A DNA stretch of 64,000 nucleotides from a virus (taxonomy: Duplodnaviria > Caudoviricetes), in the IMG/VR virus record IMGVR_UViG_3300014204_000113, positions 64,001 through 128,000 of that record. One strand, 5' to 3'. Made by a program: the position numbers and the translations under genes. The stretch's first letter is position 1; every line of letters starts with the position of its first letter. The notes below the pieces were generated by a model that was not told the DNA's origin, made no database searches, and was given only the letters and a program-made list of their open reading frames with translations. Of the stretch, positions 3,920 through 63,141 are shown piece after piece.

Positions 3920-4900
3920 ATGAATAAAACCAACGTTATCAAAGTGTTAGACAGTATTTCACCTATTCTTTCAGAAGATTATGACATTATTCACTTTAAT
4001 CAAGATTCAATTTACGCTGAAAACAACATGATAGGAATTTCTTGCAATCTAGATTTTGGTTTTAAGGCTTCAATTAGAGGGATTGAATTAATAAAACTTC
4101 TTAAAAAGATGTCAGGCGATGAAGTAGAATTTAAACTTACAGATAAAACTTTATCAGTCAAAGGTGGTGGTTTATCAGCCAAGTTTAAGAAATACGACAA
4201 GGAAAAAATGCCGCCAGACTTTACTGAATTGGAATTTAAGGAAATTCCAGATAATTTTATTGAAGCAATAATTGCTTGTTTGCCATCTGTATCAGACAAA
4301 GATATTCAAGGAATTTTAACTGGATTACACATTGATAATGCTTTGATGTATGGTTGTAACAATGTTTCTGTGACTGAATACGAAATACCAGATATGGATG
4401 TAACATTTACTCTTCCAAAACAAACCGCTTCTTTGTTGACCAAATTTAATCCAAAATATTATCATATCACTGATAACAAAGCCATTTTTGCCAATGAAGA
4501 TAAAACTTCATTTCTATGGTCTGTGCTTATGGCTGGTGCTTATCCTGTAGAAAACATGGTAAAGTTATTGTCTAAAGAAGGTGATATTTTTTCTTTGCCA
4601 GAAGAAATAGGCAAAAGGGCAGATATTGTAAGTCTGTTTGCTTATGATGCTCAAGATGGAAGTTCATTTATTGAAGTGGATATACAAGCGGATAAGATTG
4701 TATTGGGCGGTAACAAGTCTTTTGGGAATTTAGAAGATGTAATGGAATATAAATCAGAAGGAAGCGTAAAATTTCATGTGAATTCAAGTGCTTTGGGAAG
4801 GGCATTGACAATAAATAATAAATTTGTTTGCTGTGGAAATTATTTGGTATTTGAGGATGATAAGATTCGACATCTAATTTGTTTGGTTGACCATAGTTGA
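3920..4900 (+). CDS. DNA polymerase III beta-like sliding clamp
   Basis: 326 aa; ILTGLHID / GAYP beta-clamp-like segments; co-occurs with DnaE and clamp loader. Confidence 0.7.
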   Translation: MNKTNVIKVLDSISPILSEDYDIIHFNQDSIYAENNMIGISCNLDFGFKASIRGIELIKLLKKMSGDEVEFKLTDKTLSVKGGGLSAKFKKYDKEKMPPDFTELEFKEIPDNFIEAIIACLPSVSDKDIQGILTGLHIDNALMYGCNNVSVTEYEIPDMDVTFTLPKQTASLLTKFNPKYYHITDNKAIFANEDKTSFLWSVLMAGAYPVENMVKLLSKEGDIFSLPEEIGKRADIVSLFAYDAQDGSSFIEVDIQADKIVLGGNKSFGNLEDVMEYKSEGSVKFHVNSSALGRALTINNKFVCCGNYLVFEDDKIRHLICLVDHS

Positions 4901-4926
4901 TAATATGGGAATATTTGATAAAATAT

Positions 4927-4991
4927 GGTGAGGTAAGGTAAGGTTTGGTACGGTTAGGTTGGGTGGGGTAAGGTAGGGTGTGGTATGGTAA
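4927..4991 (+). ncRNA. GGT-NN pentamer array A1 (13 units), putative guide RNA
   Basis: NN = GA AA AA TT AC TA TG GG AA AG GT AT AA; perfect 5-nt period; followed by a 12-bp hairpin. Confidence 0.85.
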
Positions 4992-4993
4992 GG

Positions 4994-5021
4994 GTGCAAG
5001 TCTAAAGAATTAGACTTGCAC
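4994..5021 (+). terminator. perfect 12-bp hairpin closing array A1 (terminator or 3' handle)
   Basis: GTGCAAGTCTAA-AGAA-TTAGACTTGCAC. Confidence 0.7.
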
Positions 5022-5054: not shown

Positions 5055-5309
5055 ATGTTAATGACACCACAGAATGAAGATTGGAATGAATTTTGCGCTA
5101 TTCTTGAAGGGCCAGAAGGCTGCGATTTTAAGAAAGATGAAAACGACAAAATCGTATGGAAGTGTGATAGTAGTATGGATAGACCGCTTGCCAATAAAAT
5201 TCTCGCTGAATATTTTCCAGAGATAGACATTGAAGGTTCGTTAGAATATTTCGATGAACATGGAGGCCTCTGTGATTGTGAAATTCTGTTTAATGTAGGT
5301 GATGAATAA
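5055..5309 (+). CDS. DUF2695-like hypothetical protein
   Basis: C-terminal HGGLCDCEILFN motif. Confidence 0.6.
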   Translation: MLMTPQNEDWNEFCAILEGPEGCDFKKDENDKIVWKCDSSMDRPLANKILAEYFPEIDIEGSLEYFDEHGGLCDCEILFNVGDE

Positions 5310-14355: not shown

Positions 14356-14431
14356 GCGGGAATAGCTCAATTGGTAGAGCGCAGACCTTCCCGGTCTGAG
14401 GTTGAGTGTTCAAACCACTCTCCCTGCTCCA
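14356..14431 (+). tRNA. tRNA-Gly(TCC), atypical
   Basis: cloverleaf GCGGGAA...TCCCTGC-T-CCA; anticodon stem CAGAC/GTCTG, loop CT-TCC-CG; T-arm GAGTG-TTCAAAC-CACTC. Confidence 0.8.
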
Positions 14432-17482: not shown

Positions 17483-18586
17483 ATGGAGTTTATAATGCCA
17501 CCAAGAAAGAAAACAGATGATGTTGTAAATCAAATCAAAGAAGTTGCAAATAGTCCTGTGAGAAAAGATGATGAACGAGTTGAGTTTTTGAACAGTGGTT
17601 CAACTTTATTAAATTTAGCTGCTTCACAAAAAGGTAAAGATGGTGGATGGGCGCGAGGGAGAGTAATTAATTTGGTTGGTGATTCTAGTTCTGGGAAAAG
17701 CGCCCTTGCATTAGAAGTTTGTGCTCAAAGTCTTTACAATATTAAAAATATAGAATCTAAAATATATCCAAAACCTCAAAAGGTTTCAATAGTTTACAAC
17801 AATGTTGAAGGCGTAATGGATTTTCCAATTTCACAAATGTTCGGTGAGAAATTTAATAATGAAATCGAATGGATACAAACACCAACTTGTGAAGGTTTTG
17901 GTAAAGATTATCAACAAAGAGTCCGTAATTTAAAATCTGGAGAATTTCTTTTATATATTTTAGATTCAATTGATGCTTTAACAACAGAAGCTTCTTCAGA
18001 AAGAATGGATCAACTTTTAACCGATAAAAAAGTTGGTGGTTCTTATGGTTTAGAAAAACCAAAATTTTTTTCAAGTGAATTTTTCAATCATTTATGTGGA
18101 ATAATGAAAGGAAAAGATTCAACACTAGTTTGTATCAGTCAAGTTAGACAAAATATTGGCATAATGTTTGGGGAAAAACTTACAAGAACTGGTGGGAAAG
18201 CTCTAGATTTTTATGCACATCAAGTTTGTTGGTTGGCAACCATTGAAAAAATGAAGAAAACTTTTCGTAATCAAGATAGAATTTATGGAGTAAAAATAAG
18301 AGCACGTTTTAAAAAAAATAAAACAGCAATACCTTATAGAGAATGTGATTTTAGTATTATTTTCAATTTTGGAATTGATGATGTCAATTCAATGTTAGAT
18401 TTTTGTTTTGGTCCAAAAAGCAAGGAAATGACTTGGAATGACCAAGAAATGAAACGAGGAGATTTAGTAGAATTAATTGACAACTCAAAGGAGGATTATT
18501 TACTGCTACAAGAACTGACTGAAAAAATTTGGCATGAAATAGAGGAGGGAATAAAACCACGAAGAAAAAACAGGTTTATTGATTGA
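17483..18586 (+). CDS. recA: RecA/UvsX-like recombinase
   Basis: GDSSSGKS Walker A, LDSIDAL, ISQVR, GGKALDFYA, KNK. Confidence 0.9.
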   Translation: MEFIMPPRKKTDDVVNQIKEVANSPVRKDDERVEFLNSGSTLLNLAASQKGKDGGWARGRVINLVGDSSSGKSALALEVCAQSLYNIKNIESKIYPKPQKVSIVYNNVEGVMDFPISQMFGEKFNNEIEWIQTPTCEGFGKDYQQRVRNLKSGEFLLYILDSIDALTTEASSERMDQLLTDKKVGGSYGLEKPKFFSSEFFNHLCGIMKGKDSTLVCISQVRQNIGIMFGEKLTRTGGKALDFYAHQVCWLATIEKMKKTFRNQDRIYGVKIRARFKKNKTAIPYRECDFSIIFNFGIDDVNSMLDFCFGPKSKEMTWNDQEMKRGDLVELIDNSKEDYLLLQELTEKIWHEIEEGIKPRRKNRFID

Positions 18587-18711: not shown

Positions 18712-19026
18712 TTGCGACTTAAATTTGAAAGTTGTTTTGAAACTCAATTTCGGGAAGAACTTGAAAGTCGTGGATTCATAAAGAATAAAGATTTCATACA
18801 AGAATTTCCAGTTCGGTATCCAACCCGAATAATCGACTTTGTATTTTATGACAAAAAGGTTGGTGTTGAATTGGATGGTCCACATCACATTGGTAAGAAA
18901 AAGTATGTTGACAAGTGGAAAGATGAAAAAGCAATAAAACAAGGATGGGTTATTGTAAGATTTGATTTGGAGCAAATGAAAGATATCAAGAATTGTGTTG
19001 ATATGGCTTTAAGTTTGATTAAATGA
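18712..19026 (+). CDS. DUF559/Vsr-like PD-(D/E)XK endonuclease
   Basis: E...QEFPV...IIDF...VELDGPHH...D..KD.....GW.IVRF; TTG start with GAGGT RBS inside the array. Confidence 0.8.
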   Translation: MRLKFESCFETQFREELESRGFIKNKDFIQEFPVRYPTRIIDFVFYDKKVGVELDGPHHIGKKKYVDKWKDEKAIKQGWVIVRFDLEQMKDIKNCVDMALSLIK

Positions 19027-19033
19027 ATTTTAT

Positions 19034-19093
19034 GGTGCGGTTGGGTCTGGTGTGGTACGGTTTGGTCAGGTATGGTCAGGTAGGGTAAGGTAT
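19034..19093 (+). ncRNA. GGT-NN pentamer array A3 (12 units)
   Basis: NN = GC TG CT GT AC TT CA AT CA AG AA AT; directly upstream of the RAMP-like gene. Confidence 0.85.
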
Positions 19094-19122
19094 GGGTTTT
19101 TCTATACTCAAATTAAAACAAG

Positions 19123-19653
19123 ATGGAGAAACAAATCATGGAGTTGACAAGAATTAAAGTAACAGTTCATGGAACAAAACCTCTTTTGGTGCATCGTTTT
19201 GCGGAAGAAGAAAGCGGCAAATCCAGGAAGAAAGCAACTGAGGATTCAAAAACGCAGGCAGAAAAGGCTCTTTACACAAATGCAGATGGACCTTATGCAC
19301 CATCTTCTTGGTTTGAAGGAGCTATGGTTAAAGCCGGTGTAAATTTCTCGTTGCGCGGCAAGAAAACTTACAAAGATTTGGTTAAAAGTGCGGTTGTGGT
19401 GACACCAGAAGAAATTCCTCTACGCAACGAATGGGAAGTAGATTCTCGTCCTGTTGTGATTAGCGGCAGGATTATGCGCCATCGTCCTAAATTTAAAGAA
19501 TGGTCGGCAGAATTCACAGTTGAAATTACAGACCCGCAATTACCAGCAAATGTCTTGCAAGACATTTTGAAAGATGCAGGACAATATTGTGGCGTGGGTG
19601 ACTACAGACCCAAGTTTGGTACTTTTGAAATTGTTGAATTTAAAGAAATTTAA
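19123..19653 (+). CDS. stand-alone RAMP/Cas7-like protein, paralog 1 (GGT arrays)
   Basis: VHGTKPLL, PSS, DSRPVV...RIMRHRPKF..W, C-terminal G-loop AG..CGVGDYRPKFGTF. Confidence 0.8.
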   Translation: MEKQIMELTRIKVTVHGTKPLLVHRFAEEESGKSRKKATEDSKTQAEKALYTNADGPYAPSSWFEGAMVKAGVNFSLRGKKTYKDLVKSAVVVTPEEIPLRNEWEVDSRPVVISGRIMRHRPKFKEWSAEFTVEITDPQLPANVLQDILKDAGQYCGVGDYRPKFGTFEIVEFKEI

Positions 19654-19690
19654 TTGATAATTTATGTAGCAATAAAATTTAATTATTCTA

Positions 19691-19987
19691 TTGCTACATA
19701 AAAACAAGGTGGGCAGATTAATGTACAAAATATACAAATACCCGTTTGAAATCAAAGATGAATTCATCATTGAGATGCCTTATGATTCAAAGATTCTCAA
19801 CGCCTTTTGCCAAAATGATATTCCTTGTATGTGGGCATTAGTTAATCCACAAAGAAAATTACAAAAACGTAAATTCACCATTATAGGTACAGGGCATCCA
19901 ATTGAAGAAACTTACAATTTAGAACATATTTCAACTTTTTCACAATCTGATGGCAAATTCATCTGGCACCTTTTTGAGATAGTCTAA
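19691..19987 (+). CDS. phage hypothetical protein
   Basis: IYKYP...WALVNP...GTGH...WHLFE pattern; likely start ATG 19721. Confidence 0.6.
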   Translation: MLHKNKVGRLMYKIYKYPFEIKDEFIIEMPYDSKILNAFCQNDIPCMWALVNPQRKLQKRKFTIIGTGHPIEETYNLEHISTFSQSDGKFIWHLFEIV

Positions 19988-22983: not shown

Positions 22984-23058
22984 AGCATGGTTAGGCGAGT
23001 CCGGGCGATGCTAGGTAGGGCATGGCCAGGCGGGTCTAGGTGTGGCAGGTTGTGGCGA
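22984..23058 (+). ncRNA. GGC-NN pentamer array B1 (15 units)
   Basis: NN = AT TA GA CG GA TA AG AT CA GG TA GT AG GT GA; triplet mostly GGC/GGT with variants. Confidence 0.85.
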
Positions 23059-23106
23059 GGATTTAAAAAACGAAAAATCTAACACAAATAAAAGGAGGAA
23101 CAACAA

Positions 23107-23661
23107 ATGAACTTGGTACTGTGTAAATACAAAATTACTGGCTTATTTCCACTTTTAACCCACAGTCCTGCTGGAATGAGGCAAGCGGCCAATGCGCCAA
23201 AAGTCAAGAAGATTCCATCGCCAGAAGATGAAGCACAAGCTGGTTTGTATATTGATAATGATGGAAATTATTGCATCCCGTCTATTGCTTTTCGTTCAGC
23301 TTTATTGAATGGATTGAAAGGGAAAAAGATTGGCAAGGTGGGTGCAATTTCAGTGTTTCAAGCTGCGGTTTTTAACGTGGACGAATTGAGTCCATTAGTT
23401 GACCCTGAAACTGGGCGAGCATTAAGGGAATATACGATCGACACTCGTAGAGCTATCGTGCAAAGACAAGGAATTTTAAGAAACCGTCCAAGATTTGAAA
23501 AATGGGGATGTAATGTTTTTCTTCAAATCGACTTGGAAATAACCACACCTGAGCAAGTAGAAGAAGCATTGAATACGGCTGGTCAAATCATTGGCGTGGG
23601 TGATTTCCGTATTGAAAAGAGAGGAATGTTCGGTAAGTTTCAAGCCGAATTGGTTGAATAA
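23107..23661 (+). CDS. stand-alone RAMP/Cas7-like protein, paralog 2 (GGC arrays)
   Basis: ITGLFPLL, IPS, DTRRAIV...ILRNRPRF..W, AG..IGVGDFR....GMFGKF. Confidence 0.8.
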   Translation: MNLVLCKYKITGLFPLLTHSPAGMRQAANAPKVKKIPSPEDEAQAGLYIDNDGNYCIPSIAFRSALLNGLKGKKIGKVGAISVFQAAVFNVDELSPLVDPETGRALREYTIDTRRAIVQRQGILRNRPRFEKWGCNVFLQIDLEITTPEQVEEALNTAGQIIGVGDFRIEKRGMFGKFQAELVE

Positions 23662-23679
23662 AAGATTTTAAAGATTTGT

Positions 23680-23744
23680 GGCAAGGCGAGGCTGGGCTAG
23701 GCGGGGCTAGGCGGGGCTAGGCGGGGCTAGGTATGTCAAGGCGA
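23680..23744 (+). ncRNA. GGC-NN pentamer array B2 (13 units)
   Basis: NN = AA GA TG TA GG TA GG TA GG TA AT AA GA; internal (GGCGGGGCTA)x3. Confidence 0.8.
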
Positions 23745-23789
23745 GGTTTGAAAAAGAAATTAAGAACAAGAAATATAATGATTTTTCGC

Positions 23790-23839
23790 GGCGGGGTGGG
23801 GCGATGCCCGGCCCGGCATGGTAAGGCAAGTTAAGGCGA
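23790..23839 (+). ncRNA. GGC-NN pentamer array B3 (10 units)
   Basis: NN = GG GG GA CC CC AT AA AA AA GA. Confidence 0.8.
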
Positions 23840-23870
23840 GGGTTTTCAAACAAAACAAAGGAGAATAAAT

Positions 23871-24548
23871 ATGCTAATCAAAGCAGCAGAATTGATTGAG
23901 GATTTCAGTTTATATCCACGTTCCCAAGTGGACACAACACATGTAAGAAATATTGCAGAAGCAATGATGGCAGGAGAAAAATTTCCGTCTATCATCATTG
24001 ATGAACAAAATAGGATTATTGATGGCTTCCATCGGAAAAGAGCTACATTGAGGGTTTTTGGAGATGAGGCTGATATTGAAGTAGAAGTTCGACAATATGT
24101 TAACGATAAAGAAAGATTTCTTGATGCTTTGAGATATAATTCAAGACACGGTAAGGGAATAACTGGAGTTGAACAGACAGGAGCTATTTTGAAGGCTCAA
24201 GGTTTCAAGATTGACCCTAAATTTATCGCTTCTGCTTTGGGAATCAGCCAAGAAAGAGTCAAAGAAATCGTGCAATGTAAAGTCGGGAACATTCGCCAAG
24301 GTACGACTGCTCATGGAGACCCAGTTCCTCTAAAACGCTCTATGCAGCATTTTGCTGGGAAAGAAATGACTGTTGAGCAAGTTAAGGTGAATGATATGGC
24401 TCCCGGCACGCCACAATCTCTTCTTATCAATCAACTTATCGGATTTATTGAAAGCGGTAGTTTACAACTGGAAAATGAAAAGATTGTTAATGGACTCATC
24501 CATTTGAAGGAACTTTTAAATGGATTGGTTTTGGAAAAAGCGGTTTGA
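23871..24548 (+). CDS. ParB/Srx N-terminal domain protein inside the GGC module
   Basis: YPR, FPSIII, IIDGFHRKRA, N..HG, followed by a possible HTH (IASALGIS). Confidence 0.75.
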   Translation: MLIKAAELIEDFSLYPRSQVDTTHVRNIAEAMMAGEKFPSIIIDEQNRIIDGFHRKRATLRVFGDEADIEVEVRQYVNDKERFLDALRYNSRHGKGITGVEQTGAILKAQGFKIDPKFIASALGISQERVKEIVQCKVGNIRQGTTAHGDPVPLKRSMQHFAGKEMTVEQVKVNDMAPGTPQSLLINQLIGFIESGSLQLENEKIVNGLIHLKELLNGLVLEKAV

Positions 24549-24563
24549 AATAATTAAAGATTT

Positions 24564-24623
24564 GGCTCGGCTTGGTTGGGCGCGGCTAGGCTATGCGCGG
24601 CTTTGCGTGGCAGGGCAAGGCGT
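24564..24623 (+). ncRNA. GGC-NN pentamer array B4 (12 units)
   Basis: NN = TC TT TG GC TA TA GC TT GT AG AA GT. Confidence 0.8.
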
Positions 24624-24677
24624 GGATTTATCATCACAAAGAACAAATTTGAATTAAGTGAAACAGGAGGAGGTAAT

Positions 24678-25565: not shown

Positions 25566-25652
25566 ATCGGTGTGGCGGAATGGTAAAGGCAATAGATTGC
25601 TAATCTATCTGGTGTCAAAGCCGCGAAGGTTCGAATCCTTCACTTACCACCA
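25566..25652 (+). tRNA. degenerate tRNA-Ser(GCT)-like (possible pseudo-tRNA)
   Basis: ATAGA-TTGCTAA-TCTAT anticodon arm, long variable arm, GAAGG-TTCGAAT-CCTTC, CCA; acceptor stem pairs poorly. Confidence 0.6.
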
Positions 25653-25663
25653 TTTTAAAATGT

Positions 25664-25739
25664 GGACTCGTAATTCAGTTGGTAGAAGCCTCAACTCATA
25701 ATTGAGTAGTCTCCCGTTCGAGCCGGGACGAGTCCACCA
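25664..25739 (+). tRNA. tRNA with CAT anticodon (elongator Met or Ile2)
   Basis: GGACTCG/CGAGTCC acceptor, CTCAA-CTCATAA-TTGAG, TCCCG-TTCGAGC-CGGGA, ACCA. Confidence 0.88.
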
Positions 25740-52568: not shown

Positions 52569-54179
52569 ATGCGCGTTCTTTTTGTGAATGAAAAATGGGT
52601 CCGCAACGATCCGACTTTACGAGAGGCAAGAGGCACAGTAGAAAGCTACCTAGAAAGCGGTTTTGGCACGGCATCAGAATTTCATTGCGATGAATATTTT
52701 TATAACTACAAGAGGGATTGGAATTTTCCTCTGATAGAAAAGATAATTGAAGAAAGACCAGATGCGATTTTTTTTATGTGGATTAACAGCCAGTACAATC
52801 CTTCATTAGATGTATTTTCTATTATTCATAAAATGGGAATACCCATAGTTTGTTGGTGGGGAGATTTTTCGTTTGAAGGTTCTGTAAGAAACGCTCAAAA
52901 TTTATCTCCATTTATATCCACACATTTGATTGCAGACACTCCAATTGCTTTAACAAATGATGTCCATATAGAAAAATACAAACATATTTGGCCTACACCA
53001 ATTAACCAATTCTTTTTTAAAGGAGAAGAAAAAGACAGAATTATTCCAGTGTCTTTTCCAGGTGGAACTATTGAAGGTGGAAATAAAGGACCAAGAGAAA
53101 AGTACATAAAATATTTAATTGAAAATGGAGTAGGTGTTTTTGTGGGAGGAACAAGAAAAGAAGAAACAACTATGCAATATGCTGATACGCTTAGAAAATC
53201 TCAAATAGTCATAAACTTTTCACCTCTAGGTCAATATGGTTGCCCGTTGAAAGGAAGGTCTTTTGAAGCGATATGGTGTGGCTCTTTATTGATGGAGCCG
53301 TCTGGTTCCTTTCTTGAATACCATTTTACACCATATTCTGATTATATTCCTTATGATAATGAAAATGATTTATTAAATAAGATCAGATATTTTAGCGCAA
53401 ATAAGGAAGAAAGAGAATCAATCGCAAATCGTGGACATGAAAGAGCAATTCAAAAATACAACCCATTTTCTTTTTGGAATAAAATATTTAATGATTATTT
53501 AATTCCATATGATTTACATCTTGATATGCAGAATATACGCGGATTATTGGATTTCTTCATCTCTAAAAAGAAAGAAGTCTTTTGTAATGATTTTGTTTTC
53601 ATTAAAGAAATTTCATATTTAATTGAAAACTTGAATATCAAAGAATTTTGGGAAACTGGAAGTTATTTGGGTCATTCAACTGATTTCATCAAAAGTTTAT
53701 TCCCAAAATTGGACGTGTTCAGTTGCGACATTCACGAAGGCTATCTTGAAACAGCAAAAAATAATTGTCCTTTGGTAGATTACAAACTAATTGATTCTGT
53801 TAATTTTCTAAAAGAAAGAATTGACAATTATTCTGTCCCAACTTTTGTTTTTCTCGATGCACATGGTCATGGTGGTGGTTTGCCATTAGAAAAAGAATTG
53901 CAACTGATAGGGAATTCTGAAAAGAAATATGTACTATGTATTCATGATTGCAGACTTCCGAAAAGACCTATTTTTGGATGGGATAATTATAATGGAGTTG
54001 ATATTTCTGTTGAACTAATAGAAAAGGTTTTGAAGAAAACTGATTGTATTTTTGATATCTTTATACCATCAAATATTTATAATCATGACCCGCTAAGAGG
54101 AAGATGTTATGTTTTCGTAAATTGGTTTGAAAATTATACTATTGATTCTAAACTATTTACAAAATTGGAGGATATTTAA
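52569..54179 (+). CDS. GT-B (CgeB/Glyco_trans_1_2-like) glycosyltransferase fused to a SAM-methyltransferase-like domain
   Basis: KGRSFEAIWCG, HF.P..DY; C-terminal ETGSYLG, FLDAH, IHD. Confidence 0.75.
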   Translation: MRVLFVNEKWVRNDPTLREARGTVESYLESGFGTASEFHCDEYFYNYKRDWNFPLIEKIIEERPDAIFFMWINSQYNPSLDVFSIIHKMGIPIVCWWGDFSFEGSVRNAQNLSPFISTHLIADTPIALTNDVHIEKYKHIWPTPINQFFFKGEEKDRIIPVSFPGGTIEGGNKGPREKYIKYLIENGVGVFVGGTRKEETTMQYADTLRKSQIVINFSPLGQYGCPLKGRSFEAIWCGSLLMEPSGSFLEYHFTPYSDYIPYDNENDLLNKIRYFSANKEERESIANRGHERAIQKYNPFSFWNKIFNDYLIPYDLHLDMQNIRGLLDFFISKKKEVFCNDFVFIKEISYLIENLNIKEFWETGSYLGHSTDFIKSLFPKLDVFSCDIHEGYLETAKNNCPLVDYKLIDSVNFLKERIDNYSVPTFVFLDAHGHGGGLPLEKELQLIGNSEKKYVLCIHDCRLPKRPIFGWDNYNGVDISVELIEKVLKKTDCIFDIFIPSNIYNHDPLRGRCYVFVNWFENYTIDSKLFTKLEDI

Positions 54180-62410: not shown

Positions 62411-62438
62411 TAATATTTGGTAATATCCAACTGGATAT

Positions 62439-62528
62439 TGTGTTGTAATGTTCTGTGTTGTGTGGCGCTGTAGTGTAATGTTAAGTCCTGTAGTGTGGCG
62501 TAGTGTGTTGTTATGTGTTCTATTCTAA
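62439..62528 (+). ncRNA. TGT-NN pentamer array C1 (18 units)
   Basis: NN = GT AA TC GT GT GC AG AA TA CC AG GG AG GT TA GT AT AA; flanked by hairpins AATATCCA/TGGATATT and GGATTC/GAATCC. Confidence 0.82.
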
Positions 62529-62574
62529 GGGGATTCTGTATTGAATCCAAAATAAATTTAAGGAGAATTAAATA

Positions 62575-63141
62575 ATGAAAATTAAAGTTACAATTCAAGG
62601 AACAGTTCCAATTTTATTTAATCGTTTTGCAGAAGAGAATGAAGTTAAAGTTGCTTCTGGAATTAATCCAGTTCAAGGAGGACAAAGAGGAACGCCTAGA
62701 GAACAAGCAGAAAAGAAACTATATCAAGACGTGGATGGGAATTTGTTTCTTCCAAGTCCTATGTTATTTTCTTGTTTAGTAGATGCTGGTAAATTCCATA
62801 AAGTGGGAAGAAATAAAGTTACGACTCAGAAGACTTCTTTAGTTCCTGCCGGTATATCTGTTGAAGAATTAATCATTCCGTTTAATACTAAAGATTGGGA
62901 AATTGATTCTAGAAGCGTTGTGATACCATCTACTGGTGGTAGAATCATGTGTCACAGACCCCGGCTTGATGAGTGGCAATTAACTTTCACTTTGGATGTT
63001 GATACAACAATGTTTGATCCTAAGTTTGTTAGGACTCTTATGGATGATGCAGGCAAGAAATGTGGCTTGGGTGATTATAGACCTAATCGTAAAGGGCCAT
63101 TTGGTAAATTTGTTGTGATTAATTGGGAAGAAGAAAAATAA
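62575..63141 (+). CDS. stand-alone RAMP/Cas7-like protein, paralog 3 (TGT array)
   Basis: IQGTVPIL, LPS, DSRSVVI...RIMCHRPRL..W, AG..CGLGDYRP..KGPFGKF. Confidence 0.8.
   Translation: MKIKVTIQGTVPILFNRFAEENEVKVASGINPVQGGQRGTPREQAEKKLYQDVDGNLFLPSPMLFSCLVDAGKFHKVGRNKVTTQKTSLVPAGISVEELIIPFNTKDWEIDSRSVVIPSTGGRIMCHRPRLDEWQLTFTLDVDTTMFDPKFVRTLMDDAGKKCGLGDYRPNRKGPFGKFVVINWEEEK

Follow-up and report, generated by a model that had tools for sequence, protein, structure and literature searches.

What does a tract of tandem five-nucleotide repeats, lying between two protein genes of a tailed phage, encode, and against what is it directed? The tract, array A1, is located in a 64,000-nucleotide (nt) window (positions 64,001 to 128,000) of the IMG/VR virus record IMGVR_UViG_3300014204_000113 (Duplodnaviria; Caudoviricetes), which is a complete 187,988-bp record with terminal repeats and 34% G+C. 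Positions below are those of this window unless a contig is named. A1 lies on the plus strand at 4924-4996 and occupies the gap between the stop codon of an open reading frame (ORF) at 3920-4900 and a gene starting at 5055. It consists of 14 units, 13 with GGT and a terminal one with GGG, in a strict 5-nt register without indels, and each triplet is followed by two variable bases (NN). A preliminary description of this DNA proposed that the variable dinucleotides spell a foreign allele of the C-terminus of the sliding clamp encoded beside the array. Our analysis makes it probable, with a good degree of confidence, that A1 is a stand-alone gene for a guide RNA (vrRNA) belonging to the VIPR system that this phage itself carries, and that this guide would target the clamp allele of sister phages while the resident copy escapes.

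VIPR, a CRISPR-like system, was first described between April and October 2026 in preprints (bioRxiv 10.64898/2026.04.26.720920; cryo-electron microscopy, 10.64898/2026.04.26.720927). The system consists of a minimal RAMP protein, Vipr, and vrRNAs, which are composed of GGY/NN repeats with a 3' tail. They form a filament on double-stranded DNA in which only the NN bases pair, and in each unit one base of the target is skipped, as a rule the wobble base of a codon. The VIPR of Escherichia phage SUSP1 silences the expression of its target, and the characterised systems do not cut (10.64898/2026.04.26.720920, 10.64898/2026.04.26.720927). According to the VIPR preprint, some VIPR types carry predicted nucleases, the threshold for natural targets is 80%, and natural guides have no self hits at or above 80%. 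The natural targets known so far comprise satellites, regulators of prophages and the VIPR loci of rivals. Solo vrRNAs occur on VIPR-null phages and F5 satellites, and their self scores are lower than their rival scores (10.64898/2026.10.15.759431). The gapped code of the preliminary description is the same as the published VIPR code, and A1 can therefore be read as a vrRNA gene far from any vipr. Published vrRNAs have at least nine tandem YNNGG units with an invariant GGY, free NN and no indels, and a structured, conserved 3' tail. A1 has all of these, its tail being a simple hairpin and not the pseudoknot of SUSP1. Published vrRNAs are moreover RNAs of about 100 nt which co-purify with Vipr.

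The ORF at 3920-4900 (plus strand) encodes a 326-amino-acid product that matched PHROG 947 (E=9e-22), in agreement with its earlier assignment as the sliding clamp (DNA polymerase processivity factor); a Pfam search of this product gave no match. We compared five clamp alleles, namely the resident (self) allele, that of a close relative, and three (L022, L023 and L024) from independent contigs of a 90%-identity protein cluster, L022 being a Logan contig and L023 an ENA contig. The close relative is a 189,632-bp contig (G001, also recovered as L009) with about 85% DNA identity to this phage, and its clamp is 93% identical in protein. Scans of IMG/VR and the JGI metagenomes with the clamp protein or alignment returned this one relative only, as the same contig in both, and when IMG/VR was searched for the exact pattern of the A1 target, G001 was again the only match.

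The guide portion of A1, units 1-10 (4924-4974, plus strand), has its variable dinucleotides at 4925-26, 4930-31 and every 5 nt to 4970-71. Re-reading of 4924-4996 gave the dinucleotides listed in the preliminary description. When one target base was skipped per unit, the guide portion matched the homologous clamp codons of G001, L022 and L023 at all 20 positions and those of L024 at 18/20. The self allele scored 16/20, the lowest of the five. The predicted foreign allele, x-N-K-F-T-Y-C-G-N, is thus found in three non-self alleles, and all four non-self alleles fit the array better than the resident one does, contrary to the outcome that the preliminary description had named as its refutation. 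The wobble bases differ among the perfectly matching alleles (L022 and L023 compared with G001). Over units 1-11, the three perfect alleles match at 20/22, in frame. By the published measure of a target (at least 80% of NN paired, with a 1-nt skip at the wobble position), the foreign clamp gene is a target of A1 over units 1-10 and over units 1-11. A scan of about 379,000 positions of G001 gave a single 20/20 hit, and the runner-up scored 16. Skipping 0, 2 or 3 bases gave at most 16 on the relative, and 20/20 was obtained solely under the one-base skip. Of 1000 random guides assembled from the pooled dinucleotides, not one scored 20/20. This specificity bears on the possibility that A1 is not a guide, and that the clamp match arose by chance in a two-tier G-quadruplex tract or in a binding site for a TRAP-like ring protein. 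A GG every 5 nt could form G-quadruplexes, and triplets spaced by two bases are reminiscent of TRAP sites. However, the dinucleotides are specific, with 20/20 on foreign alleles as against none of the 1000 random guides, Vipr homologues are present in this phage, and several other arrays can be decoded in this way. We regard a non-guide function as very improbable, and both candidates were dropped given the published VIPR systems and the specificity of the A1 decoding.

Units 11-14 with the closing GGG (4975-4996, plus strand) are semi-conserved. On the clamp alleles these last four units follow the pattern 0-1-1-0 and fit none of them. Among 21 arrays, the last four positions have an entropy of 1.8-2.7 bits, compared with 3.0-3.4 bits in the interior, and use only AA, AT, AG, GA and GT. 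Because of this low entropy and the restriction to five purine-rich dinucleotides, the 3'-terminal three or four units across arrays are probably scaffold and not guide. The repeat tract continues directly into a perfect 12-bp hairpin with a 4-nt loop (4994-5021, plus strand), the structure that had been said to end the array. Its stem is kept in the tail of the relative's array, where a C-G pair has become U-A, a compensatory change, and one pair is G-U. No candidate passed an intrinsic terminator scan at A1, since the hairpin lacks a long U run, and an Rfam search at A1 returned no ribozyme and no known RNA. Two overlapping sigma-70-like promoter candidates lie at 4887-4924 (plus strand), with 10/12 and 9/12 consensus matches. 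The first repeat begins at 4924, so only the upstream candidate could yield a transcript containing all units.

The resident near-target of A1 (4811-4852, plus strand) is presumably immune. Its first 10 codons (4811-4840) account for the 16/20 match, and all 14 match at 18/28. At 4814-4849, read as NN plus one skipped base, we obtained six full and four half matches (16/24), in frame with the clamp ORF; this was the score reported previously. The site ends about 75 nt 5' of the array, close to the 80 nt given before. The self match alone is not beyond chance, because 29 sites on the plus strand of the 188-kb genome score at least 16/24 and a second site within the clamp gene (4331-4372) equals it at 18/28; its local p is about 0.03-0.2. 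Compared with the common allele, the resident clamp has Asp>Asn, Thr>Val and Tyr>Cys, and among the five alleles the last two changes are seen only in the A1-bearing genome. These three amino-acid-changing codons are the source of the four mismatches in the 20 read positions. Could A1 instead bind the resident clamp gene by this partial match and tune the replication genes of the phage that carries it? The self site adjoins the array and is in frame, and its score over the guide portion lies at the 80% line of the preprint. Nevertheless, self is the worst of the five alleles and three foreign alleles match perfectly, the two codon changes unique to this genome sit within the footprint, and the preprint finds no self hits of 80% or more for natural guides. 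Self-regulation is therefore an unlikely function of A1, though a less remote one than a non-guide repeat.

The surroundings of the array also differ between this phage and its relative. At the homologous place, the relative has a guide differing from A1 (G001:136845-136929). In the window, this guide matches the last 12 clamp codons plus the stop codon (4862-4900, plus strand) at 23/26, as against 24/26 for the L023 allele and 19/26 for the clamp of the relative itself. Of the amino acid differences between the clamps of the two phages, 8 fall within residues 1-289 and 15 within residues 290-326, the final 37 codons (Fisher p=1e-10). Codon positions 1 and 2 differ at 21/74 sites (28%) in the last 111 nt, compared with 18/580 (3%) in the first 870 nt. 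DNA identity to the relative is about 60% in the 120 nt before A1 and 85-93% around it. The A1 locus is therefore a divergence trough and not an identity peak, and the two genomes bear different guides there. L022, L023 and L024 have no array downstream of the clamp gene. In L022, the clamp stop codon lies 20 nt from a DUF2695 gene; in the window, the downstream neighbour of A1 is a DUF2695 gene (5055-5309, plus strand; Pfam PF10905), which marks the insertion point.

In the mechanism that we favour, Vipr protomers would coat the A1 RNA, each occupying one GGT unit. Vipr would be supplied in trans from at least 14 kb away, a distance consistent with trans action. The filament would present the NN bases of units 1-10, which would pair with the clamp gene on its template strand; codon positions 1-2 would be read and the wobble base passed over. 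The match of A1 is on the sense strand, and antisense pairing with the mRNA is thus impossible; the target would be the DNA template strand. The sequence specified would be the common allele of clamp residues 298-307 in sister phages and not the resident allele. During co-infection, a gapped R-loop would form on the clamp gene of the rival and block its transcription, by analogy with SUSP1, and the complex might also obstruct the replication-gene operon behind the clamp. The resident allele would escape by way of its recoded codons and their mismatches. Guide and immune allele would be inherited together like a poison-antidote pair, because only 75 nt lie between them. We infer that A1 is expressed, that it is loaded by a particular Vipr paralogue, that silencing is the outcome, and that four mismatches are sufficient for immunity; self-immunity is put no more strongly than this because the mismatch tolerance of VIPR is unpublished.

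Several points weigh against this explanation. No conserved promoter was found for A1, and the sigma-70-like candidates have no clear equivalent in the relative. When all 14 units are counted, the foreign match falls to 22/28 (79%), slightly below the 80% threshold of the preprint, and its perfect part is confined to units 1-10; over these same units the self site reaches 80%. Furthermore, the clamp of the attacker could complement the silenced clamp of the rival in trans, which would blur the effect on fitness.

Which protein would load A1? The phage has three Vipr paralogues, which all belong to PHROG 4652 and all have the G-loop motif, as expected for minimal RAMP proteins. Paralogue 1 (19123-19653, plus strand; 176 amino acids) is the nearest candidate partner, 14.1 kb from the array, and this agrees with the distance of 14 kb to the nearest RAMP gene in the preliminary description. 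It matched PDB 36pp, 'SUSP1 Vipr protein' (E=1.9e-14), with the Asp-aromatic-Arg of the G-loop and the thumb Arg, the residues by which Vipr grips the GGY bases, aligned. Paralogue 3 (62575-63141, plus strand; 188 amino acids) is a second candidate, and its G-loop is like that of paralogue 1: both have a Cys-Gly-[Val/Leu]-Gly-Asp-Tyr-Arg loop and lie among GGT arrays. Judged from position, paralogue 1 or paralogue 3 is the likely partner of A1. Paralogue 2 (23107-23661, plus strand; 184 amino acids) lies amid GGC-class arrays. Four of these are found at 22989-24628, around paralogue 2 and a ParB-like gene (23871-24548; PHROG 1033). In the G-loop of paralogue 2, Ile replaces the Cys of paralogues 1 and 3, a possible basis for C over T at the third repeat base. 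Directly upstream of paralogue 3, at 62436-62530, lies an array of TGT type (mostly TGT, not GGT); judged by its repeats, it would add a third dialect to those of this single genome.

Directly 5' of paralogue 1 is a gene for a DUF559 protein of the Vsr-like endonuclease family (18712-19026, plus strand; Pfam PF04480, E=4.5e-8), a candidate accessory gene, and recA (17483-18586) is encoded next door. The order DUF559-vipr-DUF7352 (18712-19987) is also kept in L029, L030 and L031, which makes four contigs with these candidate vap-like accessory genes. The relative G001 lacks orthologues of all three vipr genes, of the DUF559 gene and of the ParB-like gene of this phage, and has only a Vipr-like ORF at about 155040-155650, with 22% identity and a differing G-loop. 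By analogy with published VIPR-null phages, the ten GGT-class guides of G001 may depend on the Vipr of a rival.

Do the other guides of these phages behave in the same way as A1? This genome has twelve arrays, all intergenic and all on the transcribed strand, which fall into the GGT and GGC classes plus the one of TGT type. In the relative, the guide at G001:1116-1200 is an insertion that is absent here; it matches 53931-53969 of the window at 26/26 and its own allele at 17/26. The matched site covers 13 codons of the ORF at 52569-54179, and this phage is itself a perfect target of the guide of its relative. Conversely, this genome has an insertion that the relative lacks, array M (G000:C1:167541-167630, minus strand, outside the window); in the relative, the best hit of array M lies right at the junction. 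Three guides lie next to recA in other contigs (L029:226-310, L031:529-603 and L031:629-718). These recA-side guides match recA of this phage at 26/26 (opposite strand) and at 28/36 in the N-terminal region, and recA of the relative at 22/22. On these matches, recombination genes are putative targets along with the clamp. For arrays D, H and M, the genome-wide unique best same-strand hit lies less than 600 nt from the array and in frame (local p about 0.006 each).

Array H (48595-48768, a stretch that takes in the last part of the upstream gene) has nearly all of its units in common with the relative. Its flanks are 98-100% identical over about 300-400 nt, and identity drops to 65-85% on both sides; in this region the two genomes are otherwise about 83% identical. 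This peak looks like the trace of a recent co-conversion or exchange of the guide with its flanks. The best match of array H (29/42) is to the last codons of the adjoining gene, in both genomes. Array H had no perfect target in IMG/VR; a nine-unit scan gave two hits, which were rejected as chance matches since they fail to extend and sit in unrelated genes. Arrays B-K had no perfect target in the genomes compared. In the relative, array G001:115703-115767 matches its own adjacent gene (G001:115584-115622) at 21/26 (81%), with nine perfect units running. This self match is above the published threshold for natural targets, although the preprint reports no self hits that high.

At several loci and in several contigs a guide is closely linked to its own recoded target, which suggests that the guides behave as selfish linked pairs. 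As in homing or drive systems, an element lies beside the target site, the resident allele differs, and presence and absence are polymorphic. It is possible, though we think it somewhat unlikely, that a drive-like module operates here, in which the guide directs a nuclease such as the DUF559 protein to cut the rival allele, and repair, with the genome of the co-infecting attacker as template, then copies the immune allele together with the guide. Such RNA-guided marker exclusion or homing would extend the mechanism favoured above and would not exclude it. It would account for guides that are insertions beside their targets (G001:1116-1200, absent here, and array M, absent in the relative), for the absence of an array after the clamp gene in L022, L023 and L024, and for the position of array H, common to both genomes, in a peak of high identity. 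The gene order shared by the four contigs, RecA encoded next door and the predicted nucleases of some VIPR types in the preprint fit as well. However, the characterised VIPR systems silence without cutting, the link of DUF559 to Vipr rests on gene order, and the A1 locus has different guides in a divergence trough and no identity peak. Moreover, close linkage is explicable without cleavage, because a guide parted from its immune allele would be suicidal. More broadly, we suggest tentatively, at rather less than even odds but with slightly more confidence than cleavage itself, that the VIPR guides of these phages are selfish poison-antidote modules, each set beside an immune, recoded copy of an essential gene (clamp, recA and others) whose counterpart in sister phages it would attack; the modules would spread by recombination in mixed infections, possibly aided by DUF559.

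In common with the type II VIPR of SUSP1, this system has GGY/NN pentamers in register, the G-loop and thumb residues of Vipr, a one-base skip at the wobble position, targets in competing phages and no self hit above the threshold. It differs in several respects. This phage has three Vipr paralogues together with arrays of the GGT, GGC and TGT types. Its single guides, at least 12 in number, are dispersed over 100 kb and are not clustered at the vipr locus, and the tail is a plain hairpin and not a pseudoknot. The guides are directed at core genes for replication and recombination in sister phages, not at satellites or lysogeny regulators, and each guide adjoins the resident, recoded copy of its own target. 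With solo vrRNAs (10.64898/2026.10.15.759431), A1 shares a guide without an adjacent vipr-vap, which must work in trans, and self scores lower than rival scores. Carriers of solo vrRNAs have no vipr, borrow the protein of a rival, and aim at vipr, other vrRNAs or decoy sites, whereas this phage has its own Vipr genes and A1 aims at an allele of the neighbouring gene. A1 is dispersed and not solo in the published sense, in which the carrier genome lacks vipr: three vipr genes are present here. The guides of G001 may be closer to the published solo case, since G001 has no orthologues of these genes.

Similarities to other selfish elements can also be drawn. Free-standing homing endonucleases of T4-like phages, of the seg/mob type, such as SegB (PMC2330249), likewise adjoin the gene that they attack in relatives, and share with the present guides a resistant resident allele, presence/absence polymorphism in close relatives and local sequence disturbance. 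Unlike seg/mob, recognition here would be by a trans-acting RNA-protein filament and not by an encoded nuclease, and cleavage is only hypothetical. In TnpB/IscB omega-RNA retention or homing and in phage-borne CRISPR-Cas, too, a guide RNA of a mobile element acts in conflict between elements and is linked to the element that it favours. Unlike VIPR guides, TnpB/IscB and CRISPR-Cas guides read contiguous sequence and their effectors cut DNA, and the protein family and the code differ.

The existence of a clamp allele of a stated form was predicted from the code alone and was borne out in independent metagenomes. The natural trio of guide, sensitive allele and escape allele, together with the reciprocal guide of the sister phage, is material for measuring the mismatch tolerance of VIPR. 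It also bears on whether wobble-skipping forces escape by amino acid changes; in the present case it did, codon positions 1-2 being about nine times as divergent in the 111 nt targeted. Selfish linked pairs would bear on the origin of guide repertoires where no adaptation machinery of the Cas1 kind exists, and the poison-antidote reading, if true, would mean that gene drive, or marker exclusion, guided by RNA occurs naturally between viruses. The VIPR system, solo guides and self scores below rival scores have appeared in preprints. The placement of a guide beside its own recoded target has not been published: the VIPR preprints (720920, 720927 and 759431) make no mention of such guides, of alleles or of homing.

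Other RNA features were found in the window. An Rfam match (136 bits) at 44601-44822 is to HEARO RNA, the partner RNA of IscB-type HNH endonucleases, and a second, unrelated RNA-guided system thus appears to be present in the same phage. Three tRNA genes were detected with Rfam at 14356-14428, 25569-25649 and 25664-25736.
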